A stretch of 64,000 nucleotides of DNA from Escherichia coli (GTDB lineage: Bacteria > Pseudomonadota > Gammaproteobacteria > Enterobacterales > Enterobacteriaceae): the NCBI RefSeq assembly GCF_030384885.1, contig NZ_CP128613.1; one strand, written 5' to 3'. Below the pieces are notes generated by a model, which was given only the letters and a program-made list of their open reading frames with translations, ran no database searches and had not been told where the DNA came from. The position numbers were made by a program, and so were the translations under genes. Position 1 is the stretch's first letter, and every line of letters starts with the position of its first letter. This document shows positions 1,469 through 64,000 of the stretch, piece by piece.

Positions 1469-2932
1469 ATGTCTTTAGCAAAAGATAATATATGGAAACT
1501 ATTGGCCCCACTGGTGGTGATGGGCGTCATGTTTCTTATCCCTGTCCCCGACGGTATGCCACCGCAGGCATGGCATTACTTCGCTGTGTTTGTGGCAATG
1601 ATTGTCGGCATGATCCTCGAGCCAATTCCGGCAACAGCGATCAGTTTTATTGCGGTTACTATTTGCGTTATTGGCAGTAATTACCTTCTCTTTGATGCCA
1701 AAGAATTAGCTGACCCAGCGTTTAATGCGCAAAAACAGGCGCTGAAATGGGGTCTGGCTGGTTTTTCCAGCACCACGGTATGGCTGGTATTTGGCGCATT
1801 TATTTTTGCATTAGGGTATGAAGTTTCCGGGTTAGGTCGTCGCATTGCCCTTTTCCTGGTGAAATTCATGGGCAAACGCACGCTGACGTTAGGTTATGCG
1901 ATAGTCATTATCGACATTCTGCTGGCACCGTTTACACCGTCCAACACCGCGCGTACCGGGGGTACGGTTTTTCCGGTCATTAAAAACCTGCCGCCGCTGT
2001 TTAAATCATTCCCGAACGATCCGTCCGCGCGTCGTATTGGCGGCTATTTGATGTGGATGATGGTCATTAGTACCAGTCTGAGTTCGTCCATGTTTGTCAC
2101 CGGTGCGGCACCAAACGTGCTGGGTCTGGAGTTCGTCAGCAAAATTGCCGGCATCCAGATTAGCTGGTTGCAGTGGTTCCTCTGCTTCCTGCCGGTTGGC
2201 GTTATCTTACTTATCATTGCGCCGTGGCTTTCCTACGTGCTTTACAAACCGGAAATCACACACAGTGAAGAAGTAGCAACCTGGGCGGGTGATGAACTAA
2301 AAACCATGGGTGCGCTGACACGCAGAGAGTGGACGCTGATTGGCCTTGTATTGCTCAGCTTAGGTTTGTGGGTATTTGGCAGTGAAGTCATTAATGCTAC
2401 TGCGGTAGGTCTGCTGGCAGTTTCGCTAATGCTGGCCCTGCACGTTGTGCCGTGGAAAGACATTACCCGCTATAACAGCGCATGGAACACGCTGGTCAAC
2501 CTGGCAACTTTGGTTGTGATGGCTAATGGCCTGACTCGTTCTGGCTTTATTGACTGGTTCGCCGGTACCATGAGTACGCACCTGGAAGGATTCTCACCAA
2601 ACGCAACGGTGATTGTACTGGTTCTGGTGTTCTACTTTGCGCACTACCTGTTTGCCAGCCTGTCTGCGCACACCGCAACCATGCTGCCGGTTATTCTGGC
2701 CGTCGGTAAAGGTATTCCGGGCGTACCAATGGAACAACTGTGTATCCTGCTGGTGCTGTCTATCGGTATCATGGGCTGTCTGACGCCGTATGCAACCGGT
2801 CCTGGGGTGATTATTTACGGCTGCGGCTATGTGAAATCAAAAGATTACTGGCGACTTGGTGCAATCTTCGGGGTGATTTACATCTCTATGTTGCTGTTGG
2901 TTGGCTGGCCGATTCTCGCCATGTGGAACTAA
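1469..2932 (+). CDS. citT: citrate:succinate antiporter
   Basis: 487-aa polytopic membrane protein recognised as CitT (DASS family); RBS-like GGAGAA upstream. Confidence 0.9.
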   Translation: MSLAKDNIWKLLAPLVVMGVMFLIPVPDGMPPQAWHYFAVFVAMIVGMILEPIPATAISFIAVTICVIGSNYLLFDAKELADPAFNAQKQALKWGLAGFSSTTVWLVFGAFIFALGYEVSGLGRRIALFLVKFMGKRTLTLGYAIVIIDILLAPFTPSNTARTGGTVFPVIKNLPPLFKSFPNDPSARRIGGYLMWMMVISTSLSSSMFVTGAAPNVLGLEFVSKIAGIQISWLQWFLCFLPVGVILLIIAPWLSYVLYKPEITHSEEVATWAGDELKTMGALTRREWTLIGLVLLSLGLWVFGSEVINATAVGLLAVSLMLALHVVPWKDITRYNSAWNTLVNLATLVVMANGLTRSGFIDWFAGTMSTHLEGFSPNATVIVLVLVFYFAHYLFASLSAHTATMLPVILAVGKGIPGVPMEQLCILLVLSIGIMGCLTPYATGPGVIIYGCGYVKSKDYWRLGAIFGVIYISMLLLVGWPILAMWN

Positions 2933-2962
2933 TACGTTCGCCAAACGCTGAATAAATCATCA

Positions 2963-2997
2963 CGCCCGCCAGGTAAGCCCACCTGGCGGGCTTTTTT
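2963..2997 (+). terminator. rho-independent terminator downstream of citT
   Basis: GC-rich inverted repeat cgcccgccaggt/acctggcgggc followed by a T-run (ctttttt). Confidence 0.6.
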
Positions 2998-3045
2998 ATG
3001 ATTTAATAGATAGTATTCAGTGTATGTATGAGTTCCACACCCATT

Positions 3046-3852
3046 ATGAAAGCATTCTGGCGTAACGCCGCGTTGCTCGCGGTTTCTCTGCTTCCCTTCT
3101 CTTCTGCCAACGCCGTGGCGTTGCAGGCAAAACAGTATGGCGATTTTGATCGCTATGTCCTGGCCCTCTCCTGGCAAACCGGATTTTGCCAGAGTCAACA
3201 CGATCGAAATCGTAACGAACGAGATGAATGTCGCCTGCAAACCGAAACGACCAACAAAGCTGATTTTCTGACCGTACATGGTCTATGGCCGGGATTGCCT
3301 AAATCGGTTGCGGCCCGTGGTGTTGATGAACGACGCTGGATGCGCTTTGGTTGCGCTACTCGCCCAATCCCGAATCTACCAGAGGCGCGCGCCAGCCGGA
3401 TGTGTTCATCGCCGGAAACCGGGTTATCGCTGGAAACGGCAGCTAAACTAAATGAAGTCATGCCGGGAGCTGGCGGACGTTCCTGCCTGGAACGCTACGA
3501 ATATGCCAAACACGGTGCCTGCTTTGGTTTTGATCCAGACGCATACTTCGGCACGATGGTACGCCTGAATCAAGAAATTAAAGAGAGCGAAGCCGGAAAA
3601 TTCCTTGCGGATAACTACGGTAAGACAGTGAGCCGCCGTGACTTTGACGCCGCCTTTGCCAAAAGCTGGGGAAAAGAGAACGTGAAAGCCGTTAAGCTAA
3701 CGTGCCAGGGTAACCCTGCGTATTTGACTGAAATTCAGATTTCAATCAAAGCTGACGCCATCAACGCTCCGCTTTCTGCAAACTCATTCTTGCCGCAACC
3801 ACACCCAGGCAACTGTGGCAAAACCTTTGTGATTGATAAAGCGGGTTATTAA
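3046..3852 (+). CDS. rna: periplasmic ribonuclease I (RNase T2 family)
   Basis: ORF recognised as RNase I; start chosen at MKAFWRN (signal peptide, 268 aa) rather than the upstream ATG at 3028. Confidence 0.88.
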   Translation: MKAFWRNAALLAVSLLPFSSANAVALQAKQYGDFDRYVLALSWQTGFCQSQHDRNRNERDECRLQTETTNKADFLTVHGLWPGLPKSVAARGVDERRWMRFGCATRPIPNLPEARASRMCSSPETGLSLETAAKLNEVMPGAGGRSCLERYEYAKHGACFGFDPDAYFGTMVRLNQEIKESEAGKFLADNYGKTVSRRDFDAAFAKSWGKENVKAVKLTCQGNPAYLTEIQISIKADAINAPLSANSFLPQPHPGNCGKTFVIDKAGY

Positions 3853-4000
3853 TCATCTGATTTACAAAACACGCTAATTCGTCTTCCATAAACCATGACG
3901 ATTAAGATTTATACATAATGCGCTGCATTGAGGAATTCCCTGAATGTGATGCAAATCACTTCAAAGAGTGAGCAACAGTCAGTATCATCATGTGAGTTAA

Positions 4001-4034
4001 ACCCTCGCCGCCTGACGGTGAGGGTTTTCTTTTG
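4001..4034 (+). terminator. putative intrinsic terminator in rna–rnk intergenic region
   Basis: 10-bp stem with one mismatch (accctcgccg / cggtgagggt), 5-nt loop, then a T-rich run. Confidence 0.4.
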
Positions 4035-4081
4035 GGTATGTTTATCTGCGACACTCGCAGTACCGACGACATGGAGTAAAA

Positions 4082-4492
4082 ATGTCCAGACCAACTATCA
4101 TCATTAACGACCTGGATGCCGAACGCATCGATATTCTGCTGGAGCAACCTGCCTATGCTGGTTTGCCAATCGCCGACGCGTTAAACGCAGAGTTGGATCG
4201 CGCCCAAATGTGTTCGCCAGAAGAGATGCCACACGACGTGGTGACAATGAACAGCCGGGTTAAATTCCGCAATCTTAGCGATGGCGAAGTGCGTGTGCGC
4301 ACGCTGGTGTATCCGGCTAAAATGACTGACAGCAATACTCAGCTTTCTGTTATGGCTCCGGTAGGTGCCGCACTGCTGGGGCTGCGCGTTGGCGATTCCA
4401 TTCACTGGGAACTTCCGGGCGGCGTTGCAACCCACCTTGAAGTGCTGGAACTCGAATACCAGCCAGAAGCTGCTGGCGACTACCTGCTTTAA
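4082..4492 (+). CDS. rnk: regulator of nucleoside diphosphate kinase (GreA/GreB-like)
   Basis: 136-aa ORF recognised as Rnk. Confidence 0.88.
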
Positions 4493-4847
4493 TCCCATCT
4501 GCACAAGCGACAACTCGCTTTGCCCAGAGGATGCACTCGCATCCTCTTTCCGCTCAAATATCAACCAGATTTATCATTTTGCTCTTAAGCACAGCATTCT
4601 AATCTGAACTGGTTATTCATCTGCGGAACCCCATATGAGCGAAGCTCTCAGTATCACTGCGTTTTATATATTTATAGCAGCTATTATTGTTGCTGCAGTG
4701 CTATACCTTGAACAACGCTGGTAGTACCTGGTTTTATTTATTTTCCAGATCAATCGCAAATTCAGATCGAATCAGCCTCGCAAATCATAGATTCATAATC
4801 AATAATGTGCTGTTATGTATACATGCAAAAACAAGGAGAGAATGCTT

Positions 4848-5276
4848 ATGTACAAAACAATCATTATGCCAGTGGATGTATTTGAAATGGAATTGAGCGA
4901 CAAAGCTGTTCGCCACGCTGAATTCCTCGCCCAGGATGATGGAGTTATTCATCTACTTCACGTGCTACCAGGCTCAGCCAGCCTGAGCCTGCACCGTTTT
5001 GCCGCTGATGTGCGCCGTTTTGAAGAGCATCTGCAACATGAAGCAGAAGAACGTTTGCAAACGATGGTCAGCCACTTCACCATCGATCCTTCCCGCATTA
5101 AACAACATGTCCGTTTTGGTAGTGTGCGGGATGAAGTCAATGAGTTGGCAGAAGAACTGGGGGCTGATGTTGTCGTTATCGGTTCGCGCAACCCATCGAT
5201 TTCGACCCATCTGTTAGGTTCTAACGCCTCAAGCGTTATCCGCCACGCCAATCTGCCGGTGCTGGTCGTTCGCTAA
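4848..5276 (+). CDS. uspG: universal stress protein G
   Basis: 142-aa ORF recognised as UspG; start at [10 protein letters not shown] with AAGGAGAG RBS 8 nt upstream; the longer ORF from 4815 is rejected. Confidence 0.85.
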
Positions 5277-5289
5277 TAGATAAAAGTAT

Positions 5290-5375
5290 TTATGTCGCCC
5301 TGCCCGGAGCCATCCCGGCGGGGCTTTTTATTGCAATAAAAAAGCCGCCAGGTTTGACCCCGGCGGCTAAGCAAT
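5290..5375. terminator. probable bidirectional terminator region between convergent uspG and ahpF
   Basis: two GC-rich imperfect inverted repeats (ccggcgggg-type) flanked by T-run on one side and A-run on the other. Confidence 0.4.
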
Positions 5376-5397
5376 TGCAGGTGAATCTTACTTCTTC

Positions 5398-6963
5398 TTA
5401 TGCTGTTTTGGTGCGAATCAGGTAGTCAAAAGCACTCAGAGAAGCTTTGGCACCTTCGCCAGTGGCGATGATGATCTGCTTGTACGGAACCGTCGTACAG
5501 TCACCCGCAGCGAACACGCCTTTGACGTTGGTTTCGCATTTCGCATCAATGATAATCTCGCCCATGCGGTTACGTTCGACTGCGCCTTCGAGCCAGTTGG
5601 TGTTCGGCAGCAGACCAATCTGGACGAAAATACCGGCCAGTTCGATGTTGTGAATATCGCCGCTGACACGATCTCGATATTCCAGACCTACGACTTTGCT
5701 ACCGTCGCCTTTCACTTCCGTGGTTTGCGCATTCAGAATAATGTCGACGTTTTTCAGGCTGCGCAGTTTGTCCTGCAGAACCTGGTCGGCTTTCATTTCT
5801 GGCGCAAATTCCAGCAGCGTTACGTGCTCAACGATACCCGCCAGGTCGATTGCCGCTTCCACGCCGGAGTTACCGCCGCCGATAACCGCTACGCGTTTAC
5901 CTTTAAACAGCGGGCCGTCGCAGTGCGGGCAGTAGGTCACGCCTTTGGTGCGATACTGATCTTCGCCCGGAACGTTCATGTTGCGCCATTTTGCACCGGT
6001 CGCCACGATAATGCTGCGTGCTTTCAGTACCGCGCCAGAAGCTGTTTCAATCTGATGCAGGCCACCTTCAACCGCTGCCGGGATCAGTTTGCTGGCGCTC
6101 TGGCTGTCGATCACATCAACGTCGTATTCATCAACGTGAACTTTCAGCGCACCTGCCAGTTTCTGGCCTTCGGTCTTCGGTACAGAAATGTAGTTTTCGA
6201 TATCAACGGTATCGAGGATCTGACCACCAAAACGTTCGCCCATCAAACCAGTACGGATACCTTTACGTGCGGAGTAAATTGCTGCCGCTGCACCCGCCGG
6301 GCCGGAACCGACGATTAATACGTCATAAGCATCACGCTTGTTCAGCTCTTCTGCCGCACGTTTTTCCGCGCCAGTATCAATTTTGGCGACGATTTCAGTC
6401 AACGTCATGCGACCCTGACCAAACTCTTTCCCGTTTACGAACACTGCCGGAACGCCCATCACGTTGCGATCGGTGATTTCGTTCTGGAAGGTGCCGCCGT
6501 CAATTGCAGTGTGCTTGATGCGCGGGTTCAGTACGCTCATCAGGTTCAGCGCCTGCACCACATCCGGGCAGTTGTGGCAAGAGAGCGAGTAATAGGTTTC
6601 GAATTCAAAATCACCGTCAATATGGCGAATCTGCTCCAGCAGAGACTGCGCTTCTTTCGACGGATGACCACCGGTCCACAACAACGCCAGTACCAGCGAG
6701 GTAAACTCGTGGCCCAGCGGGGAACCTGCAAAACGTGGCCCCTGGTTGGAACCTGGGTTAGTGATCAGGAAAGACGGCTTACGCACCGGCAAGCTGTTAT
6801 CTTCTTTAAAGGTGACTTTGTCTGACAGTTCTGCGATTTCAGCCAACAGTTCCTTGATTTCTGCCGATTTAGCGCTGTCATCCAGCGTGGCAATTAACTC
6901 AACAGGCTTGGTCAATTTCTCAAGGTAAGCCTTGAGTTGAGTTTTCATATTTGTGTCGAGCAT
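5398..6963 (-). CDS. ahpF: alkyl hydroperoxide reductase subunit F (flavoprotein)
   Basis: ORF recognised as AhpF; start at MLDTNMKTQ (521 aa) supported by AGGAGA RBS; upstream in-frame ATGs at 6993 lack an RBS. Confidence 0.92.
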
Positions 6964-8816: not shown

Positions 8817-9023
8817 AAGATAATTCATGGGTGGTTGAAATACATCCTTGCTTTTCAACCATTCTAAAAACGCATGAATTGCTTCTTCCCCTCCTGACAA
8901 CTGTGTTACTTTAGAAAAACTTAATCCAGAGTTAAGTAATAAAACATAACAAATATAAATAAAACAGTAGAATCATTGATTACAAGAATGATTTATGGAC
9001 AAGATAATATAACGGAGTATGTT

Positions 9024-36953: not shown

Positions 36954-37074
36954 TTGACAACATCTGGTACGATTCGCCCGCAGCCATCACTGACCACGGG
37001 CGAAAGTGTAAAGCAGGTGCCTTACCATCCTGACCTGACAACCGGATATGCGGGGATTACTCCCCGCACAACGG

Positions 37075-37227
37075 CTACTTCTTCGGTTCGTAAGCGAGAA
37101 CAGCCCTGAACTCAATATTACGTTCCTTTACGGTGAACTCACACAGCGAGTCGCCGACCAGAAGCGTAAATCCCAGCACTGTCAAACACAGCACTATGAC
37201 CGCCACAAGGGCATATTTCGTCAGCAT
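37075..37227 (-). CDS. Hok-family membrane toxin (copy 1)
   Basis: 50-aa [50 protein letters not shown]; ATG verified at 37225-37227 (cat on plus strand). Confidence 0.78.
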
Positions 37228-37576
37228 GTTTATATTGCCTCCATGCGAAGAAGGGACTACCATCCAAATTGTCTGGTTTGGAGTGGCGGCCCCAGGGTTG
37301 ATAGAAATATCTCCTGGGGCTTCATCTTTCCAGACCTCAGAGTTAACCTGAAACCGGAAAGCTTCAGGCACCCGCCGTTATCTTACCCTTCCTTAGCAAA
37401 ATGGCTGTTTATTTATACAGTAAATCCTGTTCCGGACTTTTCATTAGTATTATCGCCCATGCCAGTTAAACGAAATCGCCCGCAGCCATTGCTGACCGCG
37501 GGCGAAAATGTAAAGCAGGTGCCTTACCATCCTGACCTGACAACCGGATATGCGGGGATTACTCCCCGCACAACGG

Positions 37577-37729
37577 CTACTTCTTCGGTTCGTAAGCGAG
37601 AACAGCCCTGAACTCAATATTACGTTCCTTTACGGTGAACTCACACAGCGAGTCGCCGACCAGAAGCGTAAATCCCAGCACTGTCAAACACAGCACTATG
37701 ACCGCCACAAGGGCATATTTCGTCAGCAT
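37577..37729 (-). CDS. Hok-family membrane toxin (copy 2)
   Basis: identical 50-aa Hok sequence, one repeat period downstream of copy 1. Confidence 0.78.
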
Positions 37730-37874
37730 GTTTATATTGCCTCCATGCGAAGAAGGGACTACCATCCGAGTTGTTGAGGTTCGGAGTGGCAGCCCCAGGG
37801 TTGATAGAAATATCTCCTGGGGCTTCATCTTTCCAGACCTCAGAGTAAACCTGAAACCGGAAAGCTTCAGGCAC
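37641..37874 (-). CDS. mok-like overlapping reading frame (copy 2)
   Basis: 77-codon ORF overlapping the hok start in a different frame, as for mok in hok/sok loci. Confidence 0.45.
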
Positions 37875-38079
37875 CCGCCGTTATCTTACCCTTCCTTAGC
37901 AAAATAGCTGTTTATTTATACAGTAAATCCTGTTTCGGACTTCTGTTGGCAAAACTGATCATTGCCCTTAAAACGACATCGCCCGCAGCCATCACTGACC
38001 GCGGGCGAAAGTGTAAAGCAGATGCCTTACCATCCTGACCTGACAACCGGATATGCGGGGATTGCTCCCCGCACAACGG

Positions 38080-38232
38080 CTACTTCTTCGGTTCGTAAGC
38101 GAGAACAGCCTTAAACTCAATATTACGTTCCTTCACCGTAAACTCACACAGCGAGTCTCCGACCAGAAGCGTAAATCCCAGCACCGTCAAACACAGCACT
38201 ATGACTGCCACAAGGGCATATTTCGTCAGCAT
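38080..38232 (-). CDS. hokE: Hok-family membrane toxin (copy 3, ybdK-proximal)
   Basis: 50-aa Hok with ...[14 protein letters not shown]; occupies the hokE position next to ybdK. Confidence 0.82.
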
Positions 38233-38377
38233 GTTTATATTGCCTCCATGCGAAGAAGGGACTACCATCCAAATTGTTCGGGTTTGGAGTGGCAGCCCCA
38301 GGGTTGATAGAAATATCTCCTGGGGCTTCATCTTTCCAGTCCTCAGAGTAAACCTGAAACCGGAAAGCTTCAGGCAC
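38144..38377 (-). CDS. mok-like overlapping reading frame (copy 3)
   Basis: 77-codon ORF overlapping the hok start, paralogous to copy 2. Confidence 0.45.
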
Positions 38378-38673
38378 CCGCCGTTATCTTACCCTTCCTT
38401 AGCAAAATGGCTGTTTATTTATACAGTTGGTCTTATTTCGGACTTCTCACTACGCATTAGATCAACCGAAACTAAGCCAGTTTTTCCTTCGCCCCTCAAT
38501 CGTCAAAATTCTCCGCCGCCAGCCAGCTCTGCCATAACTTGGCACATTGCAAAAGTAGCCAAACTTCTTCAGTCACAATCAGTTCACCATCTCCAAAAAA
38601 AGAAATATTCCAGAACTTCCGCATCTCCCCCGGCCGCTCCCACTTCTATACTGAAATGAAAACGCCAACATAA

Positions 38674-53283: not shown

Positions 53284-54534
53284 AGCCTGCCCGCTTACCT
53301 GAAGGCGCAGTCTGCGGGCAGGCACCGGATAAGTGAAGAGACTGACCAGTATGCCGGAGGCCACCGGCTGAAACAGGCCGGAAACACGCAGTATGACTAT
53401 GACGCCGCAGGCCGGATGGTCAGCCGCACCAGGCACCGTGACGGCTACCGCCCGGAAACAGAGCGGTTCCGGTGGGACAGCCGGGACCAGCTGACCGGGT
53501 ATTGCAGCGCACTGGGGGTGCAGTGGGAATACCGCCACGACGCCAGCGGCAGACGGACGGAAAAACGCTGCGACCGGAAGAAAATCCGTTTTACGTACCT
53601 GTGGGACGGCGACAGTATTGCGGAAATGCGGGAATACCGGGATGATAAACTGTACAGCGTACGGCACCTGGTGTTTAACGGCTTTGAGCTGCTGAGTCAG
53701 CAGTTCAGCCGGGAAAGGCAGCCGCATCCGTCCGTGGCCCCGCAGTGGGTGACGCGGACGAGCCATGCGGTAAGCGACCTGACAGGCCGCCCGGTGATGC
53801 TCTTTAACAGTGAAGGTAAAACCGTCTGGCGGCCGGGACAGACCAGCCTGTGGGGGCTGGCACTCAGCCTGCCCGCAGACACCGGCTACCCGGACCCGCG
53901 CGGGGAACTGGACCCGGAAGCCGACCCCGGCCTGCTGTATGCAGGACAGTGGCAGGATGCAGAATCCGGGCTGTGCTATAACCGGTTCCGGTACTACGAG
54001 CCGGAAACCGGGATGTACCTGGTGAGTGACCCCCTGGGGCTGGCCGGGGGGGAGCAGACTTACCGGTATGTGCCTAATCCATGTGGGTATGTTGATCCTT
54101 TGGGATTAGCAACGTGTCCCATAATCAGACAGCGGGTGCTTGCTAACCTCGAAGCCAGTCGGGCAGCAAGAGTTACATCAAATTTTGGTAAGCCTCTGGT
54201 TCAGGGAAATAAAACGATTGGCGATAAAGTAAGGGATATAATTGCCAAAGAGAGGGGAACCACTCTAATTGAACAAAATTATAGAGTGACAGGAGGATTA
54301 AGGCGTATTGACGTTGTTGATGGAGTAACGGGTATTGAATCTAAAGTCGGTCGAACAGGGATAACTGCCCGAGTACGGCAAGAGGTAGCCCGTGATATTA
54401 AGATTTTGAGAAGTGGGCAACTTGATCAAATTGAATGGGTGTTTACAAGAAGTCCAACTACAGGGAAGATTGGGCCAACTAAACCACTTGAAGATCTGTT
54501 AAATAAACATGGTATACCGATTATTTATCGATAA
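53284..54534 (+). pseudogene. 5'-truncated Rhs remnant: ~275 aa of Rhs core C-terminus plus a ~141-aa polymorphic C-terminal toxin domain (orphan rhs-CT)
   Basis: open frame from 53284 with YD-repeat-like residues and the terminal DPxGL(x)nDPLGL motif; C-terminal domain begins at 54109 where GC content drops; first ATG at 53416; the >1000-aa N-terminal part of a full Rhs is absent. Confidence 0.7.
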
Positions 54535-54545
54535 GGAGTGATAGT

Positions 54546-55103
54546 GTGAAACTCAAACCGATTGGTGATTTTTTAATTAATAGTGGGTTCGTGAAAAATA
54601 GTGACACTGACTTTTATAAAGTGCATGATAAGTTTGTATACTGTATAAATTTTCAAAAAAAGAGCACGGGTGATATTTTTTTTATAAACACAGGTGTTCA
54701 TCCTATATTCGAAGGTTTTTGCAATGAACTACCAACAAAAGAAATAGATTGCTACATTCGTAATCGTGTGTGTGATGGACTAAGTATATCTTTGCTGAAT
54801 TCTTTTGAAGGTGATGAATTTGTTATCAATGAGATAAAGGATAAAGCGTTTTGTTTTTTTGAATACTTTGATTCATTGAATAAAATATTCGATAGTATTC
54901 GTGTTGTCGATATTGAAGAGAGAAATATTTGCGATGAGCTAAGTAATGTAAGTAGCGTAAGATTAGCTTTGATGTGTATGAACTACCAATATGAGAAAAA
55001 AAATTTGGGACTTGCTTCAGATTTTGCGAACTATGGTCTTGCTATATCTAGAGGCCCGGTACCGAAAAAAGCATTTAAGGATATGATAAAAAAAATAGAG
55101 TGA
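54546..55103 (+). CDS. putative cognate immunity protein of the Rhs-CT toxin
   Basis: 185-aa AT-rich ORF starting with GTG 7 nt after an AGGAG RBS and 12 nt after the rhs-CT stop; typical position and composition of Rhs immunity genes; no recognisable domain. Confidence 0.5.
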   Translation: MKLKPIGDFLINSGFVKNSDTDFYKVHDKFVYCINFQKKSTGDIFFINTGVHPIFEGFCNELPTKEIDCYIRNRVCDGLSISLLNSFEGDEFVINEIKDKAFCFFEYFDSLNKIFDSIRVVDIEERNICDELSNVSSVRLALMCMNYQYEKKNLGLASDFANYGLAISRGPVPKKAFKDMIKKIE

Positions 55104-55109
55104 TATCTA

Positions 55110-55425
55110 ATCCGCTGTAATGCCAATTGTCTGTGTACAGAGAAGGTTAACGGCCTGGATGAGACAATCGTCTACACATGGGACGCTGCAGGCCGCCTGG
55201 CAGAAATCATCGCCCCGGAAGGGAAAACGCAGTACGCGTATGACAAATCCGGCAGGCTGACGGGTATCTTCAGCCCGGACGGCATATCACAGCGCACCGG
55301 CTACGACGAACGCGGGCGGGTGAATGTCGCCACGCAGGGCAGACGGGCCATTGAATACCACTACCCAGGGAAAGATCACGTAACGCTGCTTTTTTGTACT
55401 AAACAATTCGAATTTTATGTTTAAA
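55110..55425 (+). pseudogene. internal Rhs core fragment (YD-repeat segment) without start codon
   Basis: translates to ...VYTWDAAGRLAEIIAPEGKTQYAYDKSGRLTGIFSPDGISQRTGYDERGR..., i.e. Rhs YD repeats, ending in a short divergent tail; GC-rich. Confidence 0.5.
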
Positions 55426-55509
55426 AATTGAGATATTCCTCATTACCTGAAGCTGTTTTTTATTGCTTATACATGATCAAATACTCCTTACATAATTAAG
55501 GAGAACAAA

Positions 55510-56643
55510 ATGGAACTTAAAAAATTGATGGAACATATTTCTATTATCCCCGATTACAGACAAGCCTGGAAAGTGGAACATAAATTATCGGACATTCTAC
55601 TGTTGACTATTTGCGCCGTTATTTCGGGTGCAGAAGTTTGGGAAGATATAGAGGATTTTGGGGAAACACATCCCGATTTTTTGAAGCAATATGGTGATTT
55701 TGAAAATGGTATTCCTGTTCACGATACCATTGCCAGAGTTGTATCCTGTATCAGTCCTGCAAAATTTCACGAGTGCTTTATTAACTGGATGCGTGACTGC
55801 CATTCTTCAGATGATAAAGACGTCATCGCAATTGATGGAAAAACACTCCGGCATTCTTATGACAAGAGTCGCCGCAAGGGAGCGATTCATGTCATTAGTG
55901 CGTTCTCAACAATGCACAGTCTGGTCATCGGACAGATCAGGACGGATGAGAAATCCAATGAAATTACAGCTATCCCAGAACTTCTTAACATGCTGGATAT
56001 TAAAGGAAAAATCATCACAACTGATGCGATGGGTTGCCAGAAAGATATTGCAGAGAAGATACAAAAACAGGGAGGTGATTATTTATTCGCTGTAAAAGGA
56101 AACCAGGGGCAGCTAAATAAAGCCTTTGAGGAAAAATTTCCGCTGAAAGAATTAAATAATCCAGAGCATGACAGTTACGCAATGAGTGAAAAGAGTCACG
56201 GCAGAGAAGAAATCCGTCTTCATATTGTTTGCGATGTCCCTGATGAACTTATTGATTTCACGTTTGAATGGAAAGGTCTGAAGAAATTATGCGTGGCAGT
56301 CTCTTTTCGGTCAATAATAGCAGAACAAAAGAAAGAGCCAGAAATGACGGTCAGATATTATATCAGTTCTGCTGATTTAACCGCAGAGAAGTTCGCCACA
56401 GCAATCCGAAACCACTGGCACGTGGAGAATAAGCTGCACTGGCGTCTGGACGTGGTAATGAATGAAGACGACTGCAAAATAAGAAGAGGAAATGCAGCAG
56501 AATTATTTTCAGGGATACGGCACATCGCTATTAATATTTTGACGAATGATAAGGTATTCAAGGCAGGGTTAAGACGTAAGATGCGAAAAGCAGCCATGGA
56601 CAGAAACTATCTGGCGTCAGTCCTTGCTGGGAGCGGGCTTTAG
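55510..56643 (+). CDS. H-repeat-associated protein (ISAs1-family transposase)
   Basis: 377-aa ORF recognised as YhhI/YdcC/YbfD-type H-rpt protein; AAGGAGAA RBS; sits downstream of the Rhs fragments as in Rhs elements. Confidence 0.85.
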
Positions 56644-56681
56644 TGAGTAGGCCACCGGAACCTCCCCGACAGCCTCTCGCA

Positions 56682-56715
56682 GAACCGTACGTGAAACTCT
56701 CGCTTCATACGGCTC
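56682..56715 (-). ncRNA. group II intron catalytic domain V
   Basis: minus-strand sequence GAGCCGUAUGAAGCGAGAGUUUCACGUACGGUUC matches the domain V consensus (AGC triad, GUAU...ACGUAC helix) just 3' of the RT stop. Confidence 0.75.
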
Positions 56716-56718
56716 CCG

Positions 56719-58041
56719 TCAGGCAAACGCGCTTCCTGGTCCTGCTTTCCAGTGGGCAAACAACTCCGGCTTCTCTTTTGACAGCCTTTCCATTAGCTGA
56801 CACGCCTTCGTCTTTCTATACCGCAGGGTTTTATATTTCTTTCTCGCCCACGCAATCAGCGTCAGATTAATATATCTGCATACTTTCTTCATCGCTGATT
56901 TGTGGTATCTCGCGTAATAATTCAGCCACCCCGATATTATCGGATTCAGCCACTTCGCAATATCTTCGAGACTCATCTCCACCCTGCGTCTGATCCACAG
57001 TTTCCTGAGTTTTCCAATCATGCCTTTCTGCGCACGGTTACTCGCCGCCGGGCTGAAACTCGTAAAGAGGTTCCCCCGCCGGTGGTTACGTGCTCTTCGC
57101 GCTCTGAACGTATACCCCAGAAAATCAAACTGCACTGTTTCATGGTTCGCCTGTCGTTCGCTGTCTTTGCAGTAAACTATTTTCGTTTTCTCCGGATGTA
57201 ATTCCAGTCCACATTCCTGAAAACGTTTTGCCAGCTTATTCAGTAATTCCTCTGCCTGTTGTTTACTGCCACAATGAATTAATCCATCATCTGCATAACG
57301 GCACCAGGGAATTTCCGGATAATGTAACGTCAGCCATTTATCAAACACATAGTGCAGAAATAAATTCGCCAGTACCGGGCTGATGACTCCACCCTGTGGC
57401 GTACCTTTATTTCTTTCCTTCAGTGTTCCATCCGGCATCTGCACCGGCGCTGTCAGCCAGCGGCGAATAGACAGTCTTACCCATTTATCCGCACAATGTT
57501 TATCTACTGCCCTGAGTAATAAATCGTGGGGGATATTATCGAATAACCCTTTAATATCAAACTCAAGACACCAGTCGTATTGCCAGCAACGTTTTCTGGT
57601 GACTGCTATTGCATCCAGCGCTGATTTTCCATGCCGGTATCCGTATGAATCATTCAGGAAATAACGCTCCACTAATGGTTCAAACGTTACCAGCACCGTC
57701 ATCTGCGCTATTCGATCGCTTACTGTCGGTATTCCTAAAAGTCTTTTGCTGCCATCCTTCTTCGGAATTTCCACCGCACGCACTGGCGGCGGCATCCAGC
57801 TTCCCGACGATAACCTGTTCCAGATTTTGTACAGATTTCCTTTCAGATCCCGCTCAAAATCTTTCAGCGTCTGGTTATCCACTCCGGCAGCTCCGGCATT
57901 CGCCTTTATCCGCCGGTACGCTTCCACCACATGCAATTTACTGACCTGAAACGGTTTTGTCTGTTCACACACAGCCTCCTCCTGCCTACAGTTGGGCTGT
58001 GATGCAGACTGCCCGACGCTGTCCCTTCGCTCCACGTTCAT
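56719..58041 (-). CDS. group II intron-encoded reverse transcriptase/maturase
   Basis: RT motifs including GAAGVD, GTPQGGVISP and YADD; start placed at MNVERRDS (about 440 aa); the 505-aa ORF to 58236 probably over-extends into intron domains I–III. Confidence 0.82.
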   Translation of the reverse strand: MNVERRDSVGQSASQPNCRQEEAVCEQTKPFQVSKLHVVEAYRRIKANAGAAGVDNQTLKDFERDLKGNLYKIWNRLSSGSWMPPPVRAVEIPKKDGSKRLLGIPTVSDRIAQMTVLVTFEPLVERYFLNDSYGYRHGKSALDAIAVTRKRCWQYDWCLEFDIKGLFDNIPHDLLLRAVDKHCADKWVRLSIRRWLTAPVQMPDGTLKERNKGTPQGGVISPVLANLFLHYVFDKWLTLHYPEIPWCRYADDGLIHCGSKQQAEELLNKLAKRFQECGLELHPEKTKIVYCKDSERQANHETVQFDFLGYTFRARRARNHRRGNLFTSFSPAASNRAQKGMIGKLRKLWIRRRVEMSLEDIAKWLNPIISGWLNYYARYHKSAMKKVCRYINLTLIAWARKKYKTLRYRKTKACQLMERLSKEKPELFAHWKAGPGSAFA

Positions 58042-58543
58042 TACAAACGCTTCCTCACTACTACGAACAGCTCTGCCCCGGTTTCGCACATCGATACTCT
58101 CATACTCATAATTTCGGTTATTTGTATTTCTCTCTTGACATTGCGACGACCGGTTCCCGTAGTTCCTGCAAAGAGCCCGATACAGCGTCATGCCTGCTAT
58201 ACACCGGACATCATTCACGCAGCATTCGGAATTCACCCGTAAATTAATCCCGGCGGTATCACGAAACCTCCGGTTTTGATGTCACTTAGGACTAACGACG
58301 TTTCAACACAGGTTCGGGTTTACTCATCTCACTGTATCTCACATAGGATCAGATCTCGTCTGATCGTTCCCCCTGCGCTCACTACCATGGCTCTTTACCA
58401 CAGCAGCCGGGGTTGTTTGGGACCGACTTCCGACAGCAGATCCCGGTGGGCCTGCCACCATCTCTTCACAAGCTTATGCTTATTACATGCAAAACGTCCC
58501 GTTTTGCATCTTTGTGCCTACGGCACACCGTAATCTTTCCCTG

Positions 58544-59300
58544 TGTCATTAGTGCGTTCTCAACAATGCACAGTCTGGTTATCGGACAGATCAAGACGGA
58601 TGAGAAATCCAATGAAATTACAGCTATCCCTGAACTTCTTAACATGCTGGATATTAAAGGAAAAATCATCACAACTGATGCGATGGGTTGCCAGAAAGAT
58701 ATTGCAGAGAAGATACAAAAACAGGGCGGTGATTATTTATTCGCTGTAAAAGGAAATCAGGGGCGGCTTAATAAAGCCTTTGAGGAAAAATTTCCACTGA
58801 AAGAATTAAATAATCCAGAGCATGACAGTTACGCCATTAGTGAAAAGAGTCACGGCAGAGAAGAAATCCGTCTTCATATTGTTTGCGATGTCCCTGATGA
58901 ACTTATTGATTTCACGTTTGAATGGAAAGGTCTGAAGAAATTATGCGTGGCAGTCTCCTTTCGGTCAATAATAGCAGAACAAAAGAAAGAGCCAGAAATG
59001 ACGGTCAGATATTATATCAGTTCTGCTGATTTAACCGCAGAGAAGTTCGCCACAGCAATCCGAAACCACTGGCACGTGGAGAATAAGCTGCACTGGCGTC
59101 TGGACGTGGTAATGAATGAAGACGACTGCAAAATAAGAAGAGGAAATGCAGCAGAATTATTTTCAGGGATACGGCACATCGCTATTAATATTTTGACGAA
59201 TGATAAGGTATTCAAGGCAGGGTTAAGACGTAAGATGCGAAAAGCAGCCATGGACAGAAAGTATCTGGCGTCAGTCCTTGCGGGGAGCGGGCTTTCGTAA
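58544..59300 (+). pseudogene. 5'-truncated second copy of the H-repeat transposase gene
   Basis: near-identical to residues ~129-377 of the 55510-56643 ORF from [11 protein letters not shown] onward; lacks the N-terminal third. Confidence 0.8.
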
Positions 59301-59557
59301 TCTTTCCCTGCCCTGCTCACCTCCTCCAGGCACTTCCACAACATGATGACCTGATCGGTTGCCGCCTATCCTCCTCACTATGACCTTCACCTCCGCGCTT
59401 TTGCCTACATCCTGCACAATCGGCAACTTTTATAACCAGTGTAAAAATAACGTGCCGCAATAATCCTACCTATTAATGATAAAAAGCTGTCACAATTCAT
59501 AAAAAACTTTAATATACGCCACCCTAAACATAACCAGCGTTAATGTAAGGTTTTTGT

Positions 59558-61795
59558 GTGGACTGGCTTCTTGATGTTTTTGCAACCTGGCTATATGGCT
59601 TAAAAGTAATCGCGATAACGTTAGCGGTCATCATGTTCATCAGCGGGCTGGACGATTTTTTTATTGATGTCGTCTACTGGGTACGCCGCATTAAACGCAA
59701 GTTGAGTGTTTATCGCCGCTACCCGCGAATGAGTTACCGCGAACTGTATAAACCAGATGAAAAACCGTTAGCGATTATGGTTCCGGCGTGGAATGAAACG
59801 GGCGTCATCGGCAATATGGCCGAGCTGGCGGCGACCACGCTCGACTATGAAAACTATCATATCTTTGTTGGCACCTACCCCAACGACCCCGATACTCAGC
59901 GTGATGTTGACGAAGTGTGCGCTCGCTTCCCAAACGTGCATAAGGTAGTCTGCGCGCGTCCTGGCCCCACCAGCAAAGCCGACTGCCTGAACAACGTGCT
60001 GGACGCCATCACCCAGTTTGAGCGTAGCGCCAATTTCGCTTTTGCTGGTTTTATTCTGCATGACGCCGAAGACGTAATTTCACCGATGGAATTGCGTCTG
60101 TTCAACTATCTGGTCGAGCGTAAAGATCTGATTCAGATCCCGGTATACCCATTCGAACGCGAATGGACGCACTTCACCAGCATGACTTACATTGATGAGT
60201 TTTCAGAACTGCATGGCAAAGATGTTCCGGTGCGTGAAGCCCTCGCCGGACAAGTGCCCAGCGCAGGCGTCGGTACTTGTTTCAGCCGCCGCGCCGTGAC
60301 CGCACTGTTAGCTGACGGTGACGGTATTGCTTTCGACGTGCAGAGTCTTACTGAAGATTACGACATTGGTTTCCGCCTGAAAGAAAAAGGTATGACGGAA
60401 ATTTTTGTCCGTTTTCCGGTGGTGGACGAAGCCAAAGAACGCGAGCAGCGTAAATTTTTACAGCACGCGCGGACGTCAAACATGATCTGCGTGCGCGAAT
60501 ATTTCCCCGATACCTTTTCGACGGCGGTTCGACAAAAGTCTCGCTGGATCATCGGCATTGTTTTCCAGGGCTTTAAAACCCATAAATGGACCTCCAGCCT
60601 GACGCTGAACTACTTTCTCTGGCGCGACCGCAAAGGGGCAATCAGTAACTTTGTCAGCTTCCTCGCGATGCTGGTGATGATCCAGCTTTTGCTGTTACTG
60701 GCGTATGAAAGTTTGTGGCCCGATGCCTGGCATTTCCTTTCTATTTTCAGCGGCAGCACATGGTTAATGACCCTGCTGTGGCTAAACTTTGGTTTGATGG
60801 TTAACCGCATCGTGCAGCGGGTGATTTTTGTCACTGGCTACTACGGTCTGACGCAGGGGCTGCTATCTGTCCTGCGTCTTTTCTGGGGCAACCTGATTAA
60901 CTTCATGGCCAACTGGCGCGCGTTAAAACAGGTGCTTCAACACGGCGATCCACGTCGCGTCGCGTGGGATAAAACAACGCATGACTTCCCCAGCGTCACT
61001 GGCGATACCCGCTCGTTGCGCCCGTTAGGTCAAATTCTGCTGGAAAATCAGGTCATCACTGAAGAACAACTCGATACGGCACTGCGTAATCGTGTCGAAG
61101 GTCTACGCCTGGGCGGTTCAATGCTGATGCAGGGGCTGATTAGCGCCGAACAGCTGGCACAGGCACTGGCAGAGCAAAACGGCGTGGCGTGGGAGTCCAT
61201 CGATGCCTGGCAGATCCCTTCTTCGCTGATTGCCGCGATGCCGGCCTCCGTGGCGCTGCATTATGCGGTGCTACCGCTGCGTCTGGAAAATGATGAGTTA
61301 ATTGTCGGCAGTGAAGATGGTATTGACCCGGTTTCGCTGGCAGCCCTGACGCGTAAAGTTGGACGCAAAGTGCGTTACGTCATTGTTCTGCGAGGACAAA
61401 TTGTCACCGGATTACGTCACTGGTATGCACGCCGACGCGGTCACGATCCGCGGGCAATGTTGTACAATGCGGTTCAGCATCAGTGGCTCACGGAACAGCA
61501 GGCCGGTGAAATCTGGCGGCAATATGTGCCGCATCAGTTCCTGTTCGCCGAAATACTGACCACGCTCGGTCATATTAATCGTTCAGCAATTAACGTGTTG
61601 TTATTGCGCCATGAACGCAGTTCTCTGCCGCTCGGCAAGTTTTTGGTCACCGAAGGCGTTATCAGCCAGGAAACGTTGGATCGCGTCCTGACAATTCAAC
61701 GCGAATTACAAGTTTCGATGCAATCACTATTACTCAAAGTAGGTTTAAACACAGAACAGGTTGCGCAACTGGAGTCCGAAAATGAAGGAGAATAA
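59558..61795 (+). CDS. nfrB: bacteriophage N4 adsorption protein B (family-2 glycosyltransferase, c-di-GMP-binding)
   Basis: 745-aa ORF recognised as NfrB; apparent GTG start. Confidence 0.92.
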   Translation: MDWLLDVFATWLYGLKVIAITLAVIMFISGLDDFFIDVVYWVRRIKRKLSVYRRYPRMSYRELYKPDEKPLAIMVPAWNETGVIGNMAELAATTLDYENYHIFVGTYPNDPDTQRDVDEVCARFPNVHKVVCARPGPTSKADCLNNVLDAITQFERSANFAFAGFILHDAEDVISPMELRLFNYLVERKDLIQIPVYPFEREWTHFTSMTYIDEFSELHGKDVPVREALAGQVPSAGVGTCFSRRAVTALLADGDGIAFDVQSLTEDYDIGFRLKEKGMTEIFVRFPVVDEAKEREQRKFLQHARTSNMICVREYFPDTFSTAVRQKSRWIIGIVFQGFKTHKWTSSLTLNYFLWRDRKGAISNFVSFLAMLVMIQLLLLLAYESLWPDAWHFLSIFSGSTWLMTLLWLNFGLMVNRIVQRVIFVTGYYGLTQGLLSVLRLFWGNLINFMANWRALKQVLQHGDPRRVAWDKTTHDFPSVTGDTRSLRPLGQILLENQVITEEQLDTALRNRVEGLRLGGSMLMQGLISAEQLAQALAEQNGVAWESIDAWQIPSSLIAAMPASVALHYAVLPLRLENDELIVGSEDGIDPVSLAALTRKVGRKVRYVIVLRGQIVTGLRHWYARRRGHDPRAMLYNAVQHQWLTEQQAGEIWRQYVPHQFLFAEILTTLGHINRSAINVLLLRHERSSLPLGKFLVTEGVISQETLDRVLTIQRELQVSMQSLLLKVGLNTEQVAQLESENEGE

Positions 61796-64000
61796 CCTTA
61801 ATCGCGTCATCGGATGGTCTGGTTTACTGCTGACGTCTTTATTGAGTACCAGCGCACTCGCAGACAATATCGGCACCAGCGCAGAAGAGCTGGGGCTGAG
61901 CAATTATCGCCATTTTGTTATTTATCCCCGTCTCGATAAGGCGCTGAAGGCACAGAAAAATAACGACGAAGCAACCGCCATCCGCGAATTTGAATATATA
62001 CACCAGCAGGTGCCGGATAATATTCCGCTGACTTTATACCTTGCGGAAGCCTATCGCCATTTTGGTCATGATGACCGGGCGCGGCTGTTGCTTGAGGATC
62101 AACTGAAACGTCACCCAGGAGATGCCCGACTTGAGCGCAGTCTGGCGGCTATTCCAGTTGAAGTGAAAAGCGTTACGACTGTTGAAGAACTGCTTGCCCA
62201 GCAAAAAGCGTGCGACGCTGCGCCGACCCTGCGTTGTCGCAGTGAAGTCGGGCAGAATGCCCTGCGGCTGGCACAATTACCTGTCGCCAGAGCGCAACTG
62301 AACGATGCGACGTTTGCTGCATCGACGGAAGGAAAAACGCTGCGAACCGATCTGCTGCAACGCGCAATCTACCTGAAACAATGGTCCCAGGCAGATACGC
62401 TATACAATGAAGCACGCCAGCAGAACACATTAAGCGCGGCAGAACGCCGTCAGTGGTTTGACGTGCTTCTTGCCGGGCAGCTGGATGATCGGATCCTGGC
62501 GCTGCAATCACAGGGGATCTTCACCGATCCACAGTCATATATTACTTACGCGACCGCGCTGGCTTATCGTGGCGAGAAAGCACGCCTCCAGCATTATCTC
62601 ATTGAAAATAAGCCGCTGTTTACCACGGACGCACAAGAGAAAAGTTGGCTCTATCTGTTATCTAAATACAGCGCCAACCCCGTTCAGGCGTTGGCGAATT
62701 ATACGGTACAGTTTGCCGATAACCGCCAGTATGTTGTTGGCGCGACGCTACCGGTGCTGTTAAAAGAAGGTCAGTACGACGCAGCGCAAAAACTGCTCGC
62801 CACCCTCCCCGCCAATGAAATGCTTGAGGAGCGTTATACCGTTAGCGTAGCGACCCATAACAAGGCTGAAGCTCTGCGTCTGGCACGATTGCTATATCAG
62901 CAAGAACCGGCAAATCTTACCCGCCTGGATCAACTGACCTGGCAACTGATGCAGAACGAGCAGTCACGCGAAGCTGCCGATTTATTGCTGCAACGCTATC
63001 CTTTCCAGGGCGATGCGCGTGTCAGCCAGACTTTAATGGCGCGACTGGCGTCTCTGCTGGAAAGTCATCCTTACCTGGCAACTCCGGCGAAGGTGGCGAT
63101 TTTATCGAAACCCTTACCGCTGGCGGAGCAACGTCAGTGGCAAAGTCAGTTGCCGGGTATTGCAGATAATTGCCCGGCAATAGTTCGCTTGCTGGGCGAT
63201 ATGTCGCCTTCCTACGATGCTGCCGCCTGGAACCGTCTGGCAAAGTGTTATCGGGACACGCTACCCGGTGTGGCGTTGTATGCATGGCTTCAGGCCGAAC
63301 AACGGCAACCGAACGCCTGGCAACATCGTGCGGTAGCCTATCAGGCGTATCAGGTTGAGGATTACGCCACCGCACTGGCGGCCTGGCAGAAAATCAGTCT
63401 TCACGACATGAGCAATGAGGATCTGCTTGCTGCTGCCAATACCGCCCAGGCGGCAGGAAATGGTGCGGCTCGCGATCGCTGGCTTCAGCAGGCAGAACAA
63501 CGTGGGCTGGGAAACAATGCCCTCTACTGGTGGCTGCATGCGCAACGTTACATTCCTGGTCAGCCGGAACTCGCACTGAACGATCTCACGCGCTCAATCA
63601 ATATTGCGCCTTCTGCCAACGCTTACGTTGCGCGGGCGACAATTTATCGCCAACGTCATAATGTCCCGGCGGCGGTGAGTGATTTGCGCGCCGCTCTGGA
63701 ACTGGAACCGAATAATAGCAACACCCAGGCAGCGCTCGGTTACGCCTTGTGGGATAGCGGTGATATCGCACAGTCGCGGGAAATGCTCGAACAGGCGCAT
63801 AAAGGGCTACCGGACGATCCGGCACTTATCCGACAACTGGCCTACGTGAACCAGCGTCTGGATGATATGCCTGCGACGCAGCACTACGCCCGGCTGGTGA
63901 TTGATGACATTGATAATCAGGCGCTGATAACCCCACTGACCCCAGAGCAAAATCAGCAACGCTTCAATTTCCGCCGTCTGCATGAGGAGGTCGGTCGCCG
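61782..64000 (+). CDS. nfrA: bacteriophage N4 adsorption protein A (outer membrane, TPR-containing); 3'-partial, continues beyond the window
   Basis: ATG at 61782 overlapping nfrB end; signal peptide MKENNLNRVIGWSGLLLTSLLSTSALA; open frame to window end. Confidence 0.9.
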   Translation, partial: MKENNLNRVIGWSGLLLTSLLSTSALADNIGTSAEELGLSNYRHFVIYPRLDKALKAQKNNDEATAIREFEYIHQQVPDNIPLTLYLAEAYRHFGHDDRARLLLEDQLKRHPGDARLERSLAAIPVEVKSVTTVEELLAQQKACDAAPTLRCRSEVGQNALRLAQLPVARAQLNDATFAASTEGKTLRTDLLQRAIYLKQWSQADTLYNEARQQNTLSAAERRQWFDVLLAGQLDDRILALQSQGIFTDPQSYITYATALAYRGEKARLQHYLIENKPLFTTDAQEKSWLYLLSKYSANPVQALANYTVQFADNRQYVVGATLPVLLKEGQYDAAQKLLATLPANEMLEERYTVSVATHNKAEALRLARLLYQQEPANLTRLDQLTWQLMQNEQSREAADLLLQRYPFQGDARVSQTLMARLASLLESHPYLATPAKVAILSKPLPLAEQRQWQSQLPGIADNCPAIVRLLGDMSPSYDAAAWNRLAKCYRDTLPGVALYAWLQAEQRQPNAWQHRAVAYQAYQVEDYATALAAWQKISLHDMSNEDLLAAANTAQAAGNGAARDRWLQQAEQRGLGNNALYWWLHAQRYIPGQPELALNDLTRSINIAPSANAYVARATIYRQRHNVPAAVSDLRAALELEPNNSNTQAALGYALWDSGDIAQSREMLEQAHKGLPDDPALIRQLAYVNQRLDDMPATQHYARLVIDDIDNQALITPLTPEQNQQRFNFRRLHEEVGR

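Follow-up and report, generated by a model that had tools for sequence, protein, structure and literature searches.

The H-repeat (H-rpt, ISEc1) of Escherichia coli Rhs elements is an insertion sequence (IS) of the ISAs1 family that spans 1291 bp between 15-bp terminal repeats beginning CAGGG, encodes a 378-aa DDE transposase and resides at the distal end of an Rhs locus, upstream of nfrB. To our knowledge, there is no experimentally described pathway for transposition in the ISAs1 family. Adjacent deletions and nested insertions are established for IS1, for the inside-end events of IS10/Tn10, for IS903 and for IS26, and in events of this type an intact terminus becomes joined to new sequence, the adjoining DNA is lost and no target duplication spans the joint. 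A group II intron of E. coli ATCC 8739 is listed as E.c.I9, homing to 'Rhs IS', in PMC3522654, the only directly usable source in the literature on H-rpts with a group II intron, on ISAs1 target duplications and on the ISAs1 mechanism.

The locus analysed here lies within a 64-kb stretch of E. coli DNA (hereafter the window, meaning this stretch as a whole) and shares with H-rpt/ISEc1 its length, terminal repeats, transposase and location. It differs in that a full copy and a 5'-truncated copy are joined terminus to interior, and in that the full copy carries a group II intron in its right inverted repeat. The intron is similar to E.c.I9, with the same 15-bp IS terminal repeat as 5' exon, but distinct from it in lying at the right end of the IS, antisense, with a G-U wobble in the putative EBS1-IBS1 pairing and with a different 3' exon. 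The joint between the two copies has the features of IS1-, IS10-, IS903- and IS26-type events listed above, except that a second copy of the same IS serves as the target.

Organization of the H-rpt region upstream of nfrB

The region extends from a remnant of an Rhs gene to the start of nfrB at 59558 and comprises the following features, with IRL and IRR denoting the left and right terminal inverted repeats:

55105..55365, + strand: orphan Rhs core fragment, annotated as a partial CDS, ending exactly at the left end of copy 1
55366..55380, + strand: IRL of H-rpt copy 1, CAGGGAAAGATCACG, agreeing with the reverse complement of the 15-mer in 14/15 positions
55366..56641, + strand: body of H-rpt copy 1, nt 1-1276 of the 1291-bp element, gapless against the H-rpts of S3 (L005) and O103:H2 12009 (L006)
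55510-56643, + strand: transposase ORF of copy 1, 377 aa, matching NF033564, PF13808 and PF01609
56642..58528, - strand: E.c.I9-like group II intron, 1887 nt, matching Rfam RF00029 and RF01999
~56719-58041 (longest ORF to 58236), - strand: intron RT/maturase ORF, matching TIGR04416, RVT_1 and GIIM
58529..58543, + strand: IRR terminus of copy 1, CGTAATCTTTCCCTG, which is also the intron 5' exon with IBS1
58543..58544: joint of the final IRR base of copy 1 against nt 525 of copy 2, with zero overlap
58544..59295, + strand: H-rpt copy 2, 5'-truncated, nt 525-1276, from the alignment and partial PF01609/NF033564 matches
59296..59310, + strand: IRR of copy 2 (the second 15-mer), uninterrupted, a vacant intron homing site
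59311..59557, + strand: conserved flank from the resident H-rpt to nfrB

Immediately downstream of the intron, CGTAATCTTTCCCTG at 58529-58543 is followed at once by TGTCATTAGTGCG..., which is internal H-rpt sequence from 58544 onward, an order already reported in the preliminary description. The 15-mer has exactly two occurrences on the + strand of the window, against a chance expectation that we estimate at ~1e-4; its recurrence after the second copy was correctly noted, although at 59298-59312 instead of the actual 59296-59310. These 15 bp had been regarded as part of the H-rpt 3' flank. The 15-mer is not flank but the terminal inverted repeat at the right end of this 1291-bp H-rpt of the ISAs1 family. 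IRL (55366-55380) is complementary to it at 14/15 positions, and the inverted repeat reaches 25 nt at 80%. When the intron is subtracted, IRL to IRR measures 1291 bp and can be aligned end to end with the single H-rpts of S3 and O103:H2 12009, which are bounded by the same left terminus despite different left flanks. Where H-rpt copies with different flanks are compared, homology stops exactly at CAGGG/CCCTG, and for relatives without an H-rpt at this site, homology to the window starts at 59308-59311. Thus, the intron lies within the element, 15 bp inside its right tip, and the joint at 58543/58544 links an IS terminus to nt 524/525 of another copy.

The relatives closest to the window in the nfrB flank (L008-L011) have neither an H-rpt nor an Rhs locus and, with the H-rpt missing, provide no outgroup arrangement; their interval from cusS to nfrB is occupied by small orphan genes (SMI1/KNR4, hypothetical proteins). 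The sequences of these relatives become similar to the window at position 9000/9001, which corresponds to window 59310/59311, exactly where the H-rpt ends. On the left side, the Rhs core fragment is 89-92% identical to internal Rhs core of L001 and L005, and this homology ends at 55366. A comparison of the left flank (...ATACCACTACC) with the right flank (TGTCATTAGTG...) for a target-site duplication reveals no shared sequence. A deletion during or after insertion would lead to such an absence, which has no bearing on the identity of the element.

The second copy aligns without gaps to the first (58544-59295 against 55890-56641), with 13 mismatches over 752 bp (98.3% identity), and corresponds to codons 128-378 of the 378-codon transposase. 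The earlier account of a partial second H-rpt in tandem, retaining the last two-thirds of the ORF, is therefore accurate. Copy 1 retains both terminal repeats and a 377-aa transposase ORF, which scores 414.3 bits against NF033564 (ISAs1 family transposase; cut-off 70) and also matches PF13808 and PF01609. In this copy the extended inverted repeat (~25 nt) is interrupted by the intron, and the final Ser codon of the transposase is replaced by a stop that the intron supplies; the 377-aa protein with this stop is indexed in 269 blocks of the assembly collection. Copy 2 scores 267.6 bits over positions 100-314 of NF033564 and matches PF01609 at positions 40-200 only. Since copy 2 has lost IRL, the PF13808 domain at the N terminus and the initial ~39 profile positions of the DDE domain, it is an immobile pseudogene, a relic.

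Comparison with complete E. coli genomes distinguishes the two copies by their junctions. The junction leading from the copy 2 IRR through CCCTGCTCACC... to nfrB is ancestral: 2287 of 5426 complete genomes cover it, and in these a lone H-rpt separates a truncated Rhs gene from nfrB, with the annotation 'ISEc1 family transposase' beside 'nrfB'. This identifies copy 2 as the resident element. The left junction (55365/55366) and the middle joint (58543/58544) are each found in one complete genome only among the 5426, the same genome in both cases, and the left junction is found in addition in draft assemblies of the same lineage. This single-genome occurrence fits a recently arrived unit. The incoming unit is the segment 55366-58543, a 3178-bp complete IS unit running from IRL to IRR with the intron included.

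The 13 differences between the copies amount to 1.7%, and each copy has private variants relative to the H-rpts of S3 and O103:H2 12009, whereas assemblies of the lineage are mutually 99.93-100% identical over about 7 kb. A divergence of 1.7% between copies, compared with at most 0.07% within the lineage, establishes that the copies have separate origins and did not arise by a recent duplication in situ. The SNP patterns relative to the same two reference H-rpts do not single out which window copy is orthologous, since both copies differ from them by about 1.4-1.8%.

The group II intron and its homing site

The limits of the intron (56642-58528) are set by two Rfam matches to its RNA, a full-length one to RF00029 (56642-56717; 62.8 bits against a gathering score of 40) and one to RF01999 (58342-58459; 93.1 bits against a gathering score of 36), and the intron 5' end at 58528 reads GTGTG. 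The encoded RT/maturase scores 426.6 bits against TIGR04416 (cut-off 300) and matches RVT_1 and GIIM, while a profile search of this protein for an endonuclease domain found none. The ORF is intact, with splicing and retrohoming as predicted activities. ATCC 8739 has a single full-length intron, to which that of the window is 96.2% identical; its identity to the copies of N96, FDAARGOS_1284 and others is 99.4-99.8%. Of 5,426 complete E. coli genomes, 83 contain a near-full-length copy and about 2,560 contain short fragments; within the E. coli genome collection, the best match to the intron is at least 99% identical in 2,212 records.

The position and orientation of the window intron contrast with those of its relatives. 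In the three genomes read among those with a near-full-length copy, the intron resides at IRL in sense orientation, with the arrangement CAGGGAAAGATCACG-intron-TAACGC, and of the 82 other complete genomes that have a near-full-length intron, not one has an IRR-type junction as its best match. The window intron, by comparison, occupies IRR and is antisense to the transposase gene. A candidate EBS1 (CGTGAT, intron nt 266-271) can pair with IBS1 (ATTACG, positions -6 to -1) with a single G-U wobble, and pairs perfectly with ATCACG of IRL. A partner EBS2 for the 5' exon was also sought, and no clear candidate was found. Occupation of IRR in the opposite orientation is understandable, the 5' exon being the inverted repeat itself. 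Because of the antisense orientation, the intron would be expressed only by read-through from the nfrB side and would not be spliceable from the transposase mRNA.

At 59295/59296, a mere 767 bp away from the apparently intact intron, there is a vacant homing site whose 15-bp 5' exon is identical and whose 3' exon is the same. The vacancy of this neighbouring site suggests that homing to IRR is inefficient or that the intron is silent. A different combination of H-rpt and intron is seen in STN0717-11 (L022, reverse-complement coordinates 1862-6354), where two direct-tandem H-rpts lie 21 bp apart and the first is broken at nt ~1086, within the transposase ORF, by a group II intron in sense orientation. 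This intron, 69-71% identical to that of the window, is probably E.c.I2 of PMC3522654.

Origin of the joint between the two copies

At the joint, the ...CCCTG end of IRR abuts TGTCATT..., which gives TGTG with zero overlap. The bases before the internal TG in the intact copy are CA, and the base after the second IRR is C, such that the tg dinucleotide earlier described as shared by both partners belongs to no overlap. An IS terminus joined to the inside of another copy with zero overlap is a signature of the transposase type, which runs counter to the illegitimate, microhomology-guided event put forward in the preliminary description. Two of its other proposals are borne out, namely that the joint was not formed by homologous recombination and that a transposase was possibly involved, the latter in keeping with a joint that falls exactly at the IS terminus.

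We suggest that two distinct H-rpt copies were probably brought together by transposase-mediated end joining, whether through a nested insertion that later collapsed or through an IS-adjacent deletion. The H-rpt transposase would have joined the 3' end of the copy 1 IRR to an internal target at nt 524/525 of the resident, with loss of the first 524 bp of the resident and of the DNA between the elements, including the rest of the orphan core. On a first possible route, copy 1 would insert into the upstream orphan Rhs core and then undergo intramolecular transposition, that is, an IS-adjacent deletion in which the copy 1 IRR, either alone or together with the resident IRL as 'inside ends', attacks the resident copy. 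On a second, copy 1 would insert into the resident in the same orientation, and the duplicated left part would subsequently be lost by homologous recombination or by a further adjacent deletion. The flanks of copy 1 are not adjacent in any relative and no target duplication is present, which indicates that DNA was lost; a simple insertion of copy 1 was rejected on these same grounds. As no target duplication is visible, and none is expected on either route, the hallmark of simple transposition is not demonstrable at this locus.

The capacity for adjacent deletion is assumed for the ISAs1 family by analogy with IS1, IS10, IS903 and IS26. Full single H-rpts exist at the nfrB site in other genomes; among the assemblies searched, no precursor arrangement with the left junction of this lineage was found, and there is no record of a copy 1 transposase free of the intron (378 aa), from which the order of events could be read. 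Should the transposase require more than 15 terminal bp, the end that carries the intron would be inactive, in which case the joint must be older than the intron. The IRR-type intron insertion and the joint are each rare and yet only 15 bp apart, a closeness that transposase-mediated joining of two copies explains only insofar as both features belong to one lineage-specific unit.

Joints of the same type are observed at other loci. In L004 (5891-6016) an IS tip lies against an internal piece of the intron, producing a 111-bp partial tandem unit with 2 mismatches, and in L002 (5891-6063) the same type of joint, with another breakpoint, produces a 159-bp unit with 6 mismatches. Both units consist of the intron 5' end and the 15-bp IS tip, joined at the exact IS terminus. 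Together with the tandem H-rpts of STN0717-11, these joints indicate that H-rpts land in or beside one another.

The direct tandem arrangement, in which 58544-59310 repeats 55890-56641 plus IRR, could also be produced by a partial tandem duplication in situ of a 767-bp segment (segment B plus IRR), through microhomology or slippage, with the intron arriving later. The joint does not have the expected properties of such an event, as it contains zero overlapping bases and its breakpoint coincides with the IS terminus to the nucleotide, which a random breakpoint would hit roughly once in a thousand. The analogous joints in L002 and L004 are likewise at the IS terminus, and the 13 differences in 752 bp exceed by far what the lineage has accumulated. 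We consider the duplication in situ envisaged in the preliminary description to be improbable.

The short distance between an IRR-type insertion and a joint that are both rare would also be accounted for if the intron itself had driven the rearrangement. An unspliced or partly reverse-spliced RNA with 15 nt of 5' exon would be reverse-transcribed, and template switching or aberrant fork repair would then yield the order exon1-exon2(752)-exon1-intron-exon2. The intron protein has RT and maturase domains and no detected endonuclease domain, introns that lack this domain rely on replication forks, and the duplications in L002 and L004 include the intron 5' end. The breakpoint, however, lies at the outer end of the 15-bp repeat, i.e. 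at the IS terminus, and not at the intron-exon boundary, and an RNA end or template switch exactly 15 nt upstream would be unexpected at three independent loci (the window, L002 and L004). In addition, a spliced lariat contains no exon sequence, and the 1.7% divergence would still demand a second H-rpt copy. An intron-driven origin is thus very improbable, and transposase-mediated joining of two distinct copies remains the reading that we prefer.

The joint itself is real. A 22-mer across it is present in the complete genome CP027579.1 (L013/L018) and in L017, L019, L020 and L021, the last four being contigs that extend from within the intron across the joint to nfrB-nfrA; no match to the 22-mer was obtained in metagenome contigs. 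In the assembly collection, 35 index blocks contain a 274-aa ORF that crosses the joint. The window is itself a further assembly: it is 100% identical to the 2013C-4282 chromosome (NZ_CP027579.1) from 53296 to 64000, yet has 8,947 bp fewer than CP027579.1 and 5 SNPs in 16 kb. The occurrence of the joint in five assemblies excludes the mis-assembly that was an earlier concern. Elsewhere, the repeats did interrupt assembly: short-read drafts L014-L016 break in the intron or at the H-rpt end, and the older scaffold L012 has a gap of 957 N over the joint, between a match to copy 1 and a match to copy 2. Repeat collapse or a mis-join of two H-rpt copies, for which these breaks and the repeat-rich setting are the argument, has a negligible probability given that CP027579.1 and four other accessions carry the 22-mer within surroundings that are 99.93-100% identical, that the joint-spanning ORF recurs across index blocks and that the window was assembled separately from CP027579.1.

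Three further observations concern these assemblies. At window 53296/53297, the 8,947 bp that are absent relative to RefSeq 2013C-4282 (L007 16432-25378) hold vgrG, a DcrB-related gene, the main 4.8-kb rhs, its immunity gene and the start of the orphan rhs, and the joint left in the window has an overlap of only 2 nt (TA). The five SNPs fall in the 16 kb that precede this position, from which it follows that the window derives from a different assembly or isolate than RefSeq 2013C-4282. In L017 (GCA_018090145.2, ABADRU020000024.1; 2887-6070), the 5' side of the intron continues into the same IRR, joint, copy 2 and nfrB as in the window, while the 3' side adjoins an inverted H-rpt by metJ and a peptidase_C92 gene and is IRL-type; this reflects either a chromosomal rearrangement in which two intron copies recombined or an assembly error that bridged the 1.9-kb repeat. 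Window 36974-38459 contains three tandem hokE-containing units of ~503 bp that are about 94.5% alike, and three hokE genes are annotated in 2013C-4282.

Implications for H-rpt and intron traffic at Rhs loci

The region reflects the ordinary traffic of IS elements and introns through an Rhs locus. It is both real and lineage-specific, and its one minor new detail is an E.c.I9-type intron at the IRR site in the opposite orientation. The record is corrected in that the joint is an IS end, and neither a microhomology scar nor a mis-assembly. No effect on host genes is evident, as nfrB and its upstream flank are unchanged compared with relatives.

It is conceivable, although we regard it as unlikely, that the 3178-bp unit (55366-58543) is a mobile composite, namely an H-rpt that still transposes with an intron in its terminal repeat. 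Were this the case, the intron would home to both ends of the IS (IRL in sense, IRR in antisense orientation) and ride on the IS, and the lineage-specific flanks would be rare natural evidence of recent H-rpt transposase activity in E. coli. More remote is the idea that the intron machinery itself helped to create the terminus-to-interior joint.

With the joint understood as an IS end, the locus presents a lineage-specific trace of H-rpt (ISAs1) end activity. The presence of the intron target within the inverted repeat of the IS gives the E.c.I9-type intron a second homing site in the opposite orientation, and the region provides a further example of how H-rpts and introns pile up at Rhs loci and decay there to partial tandem copies.
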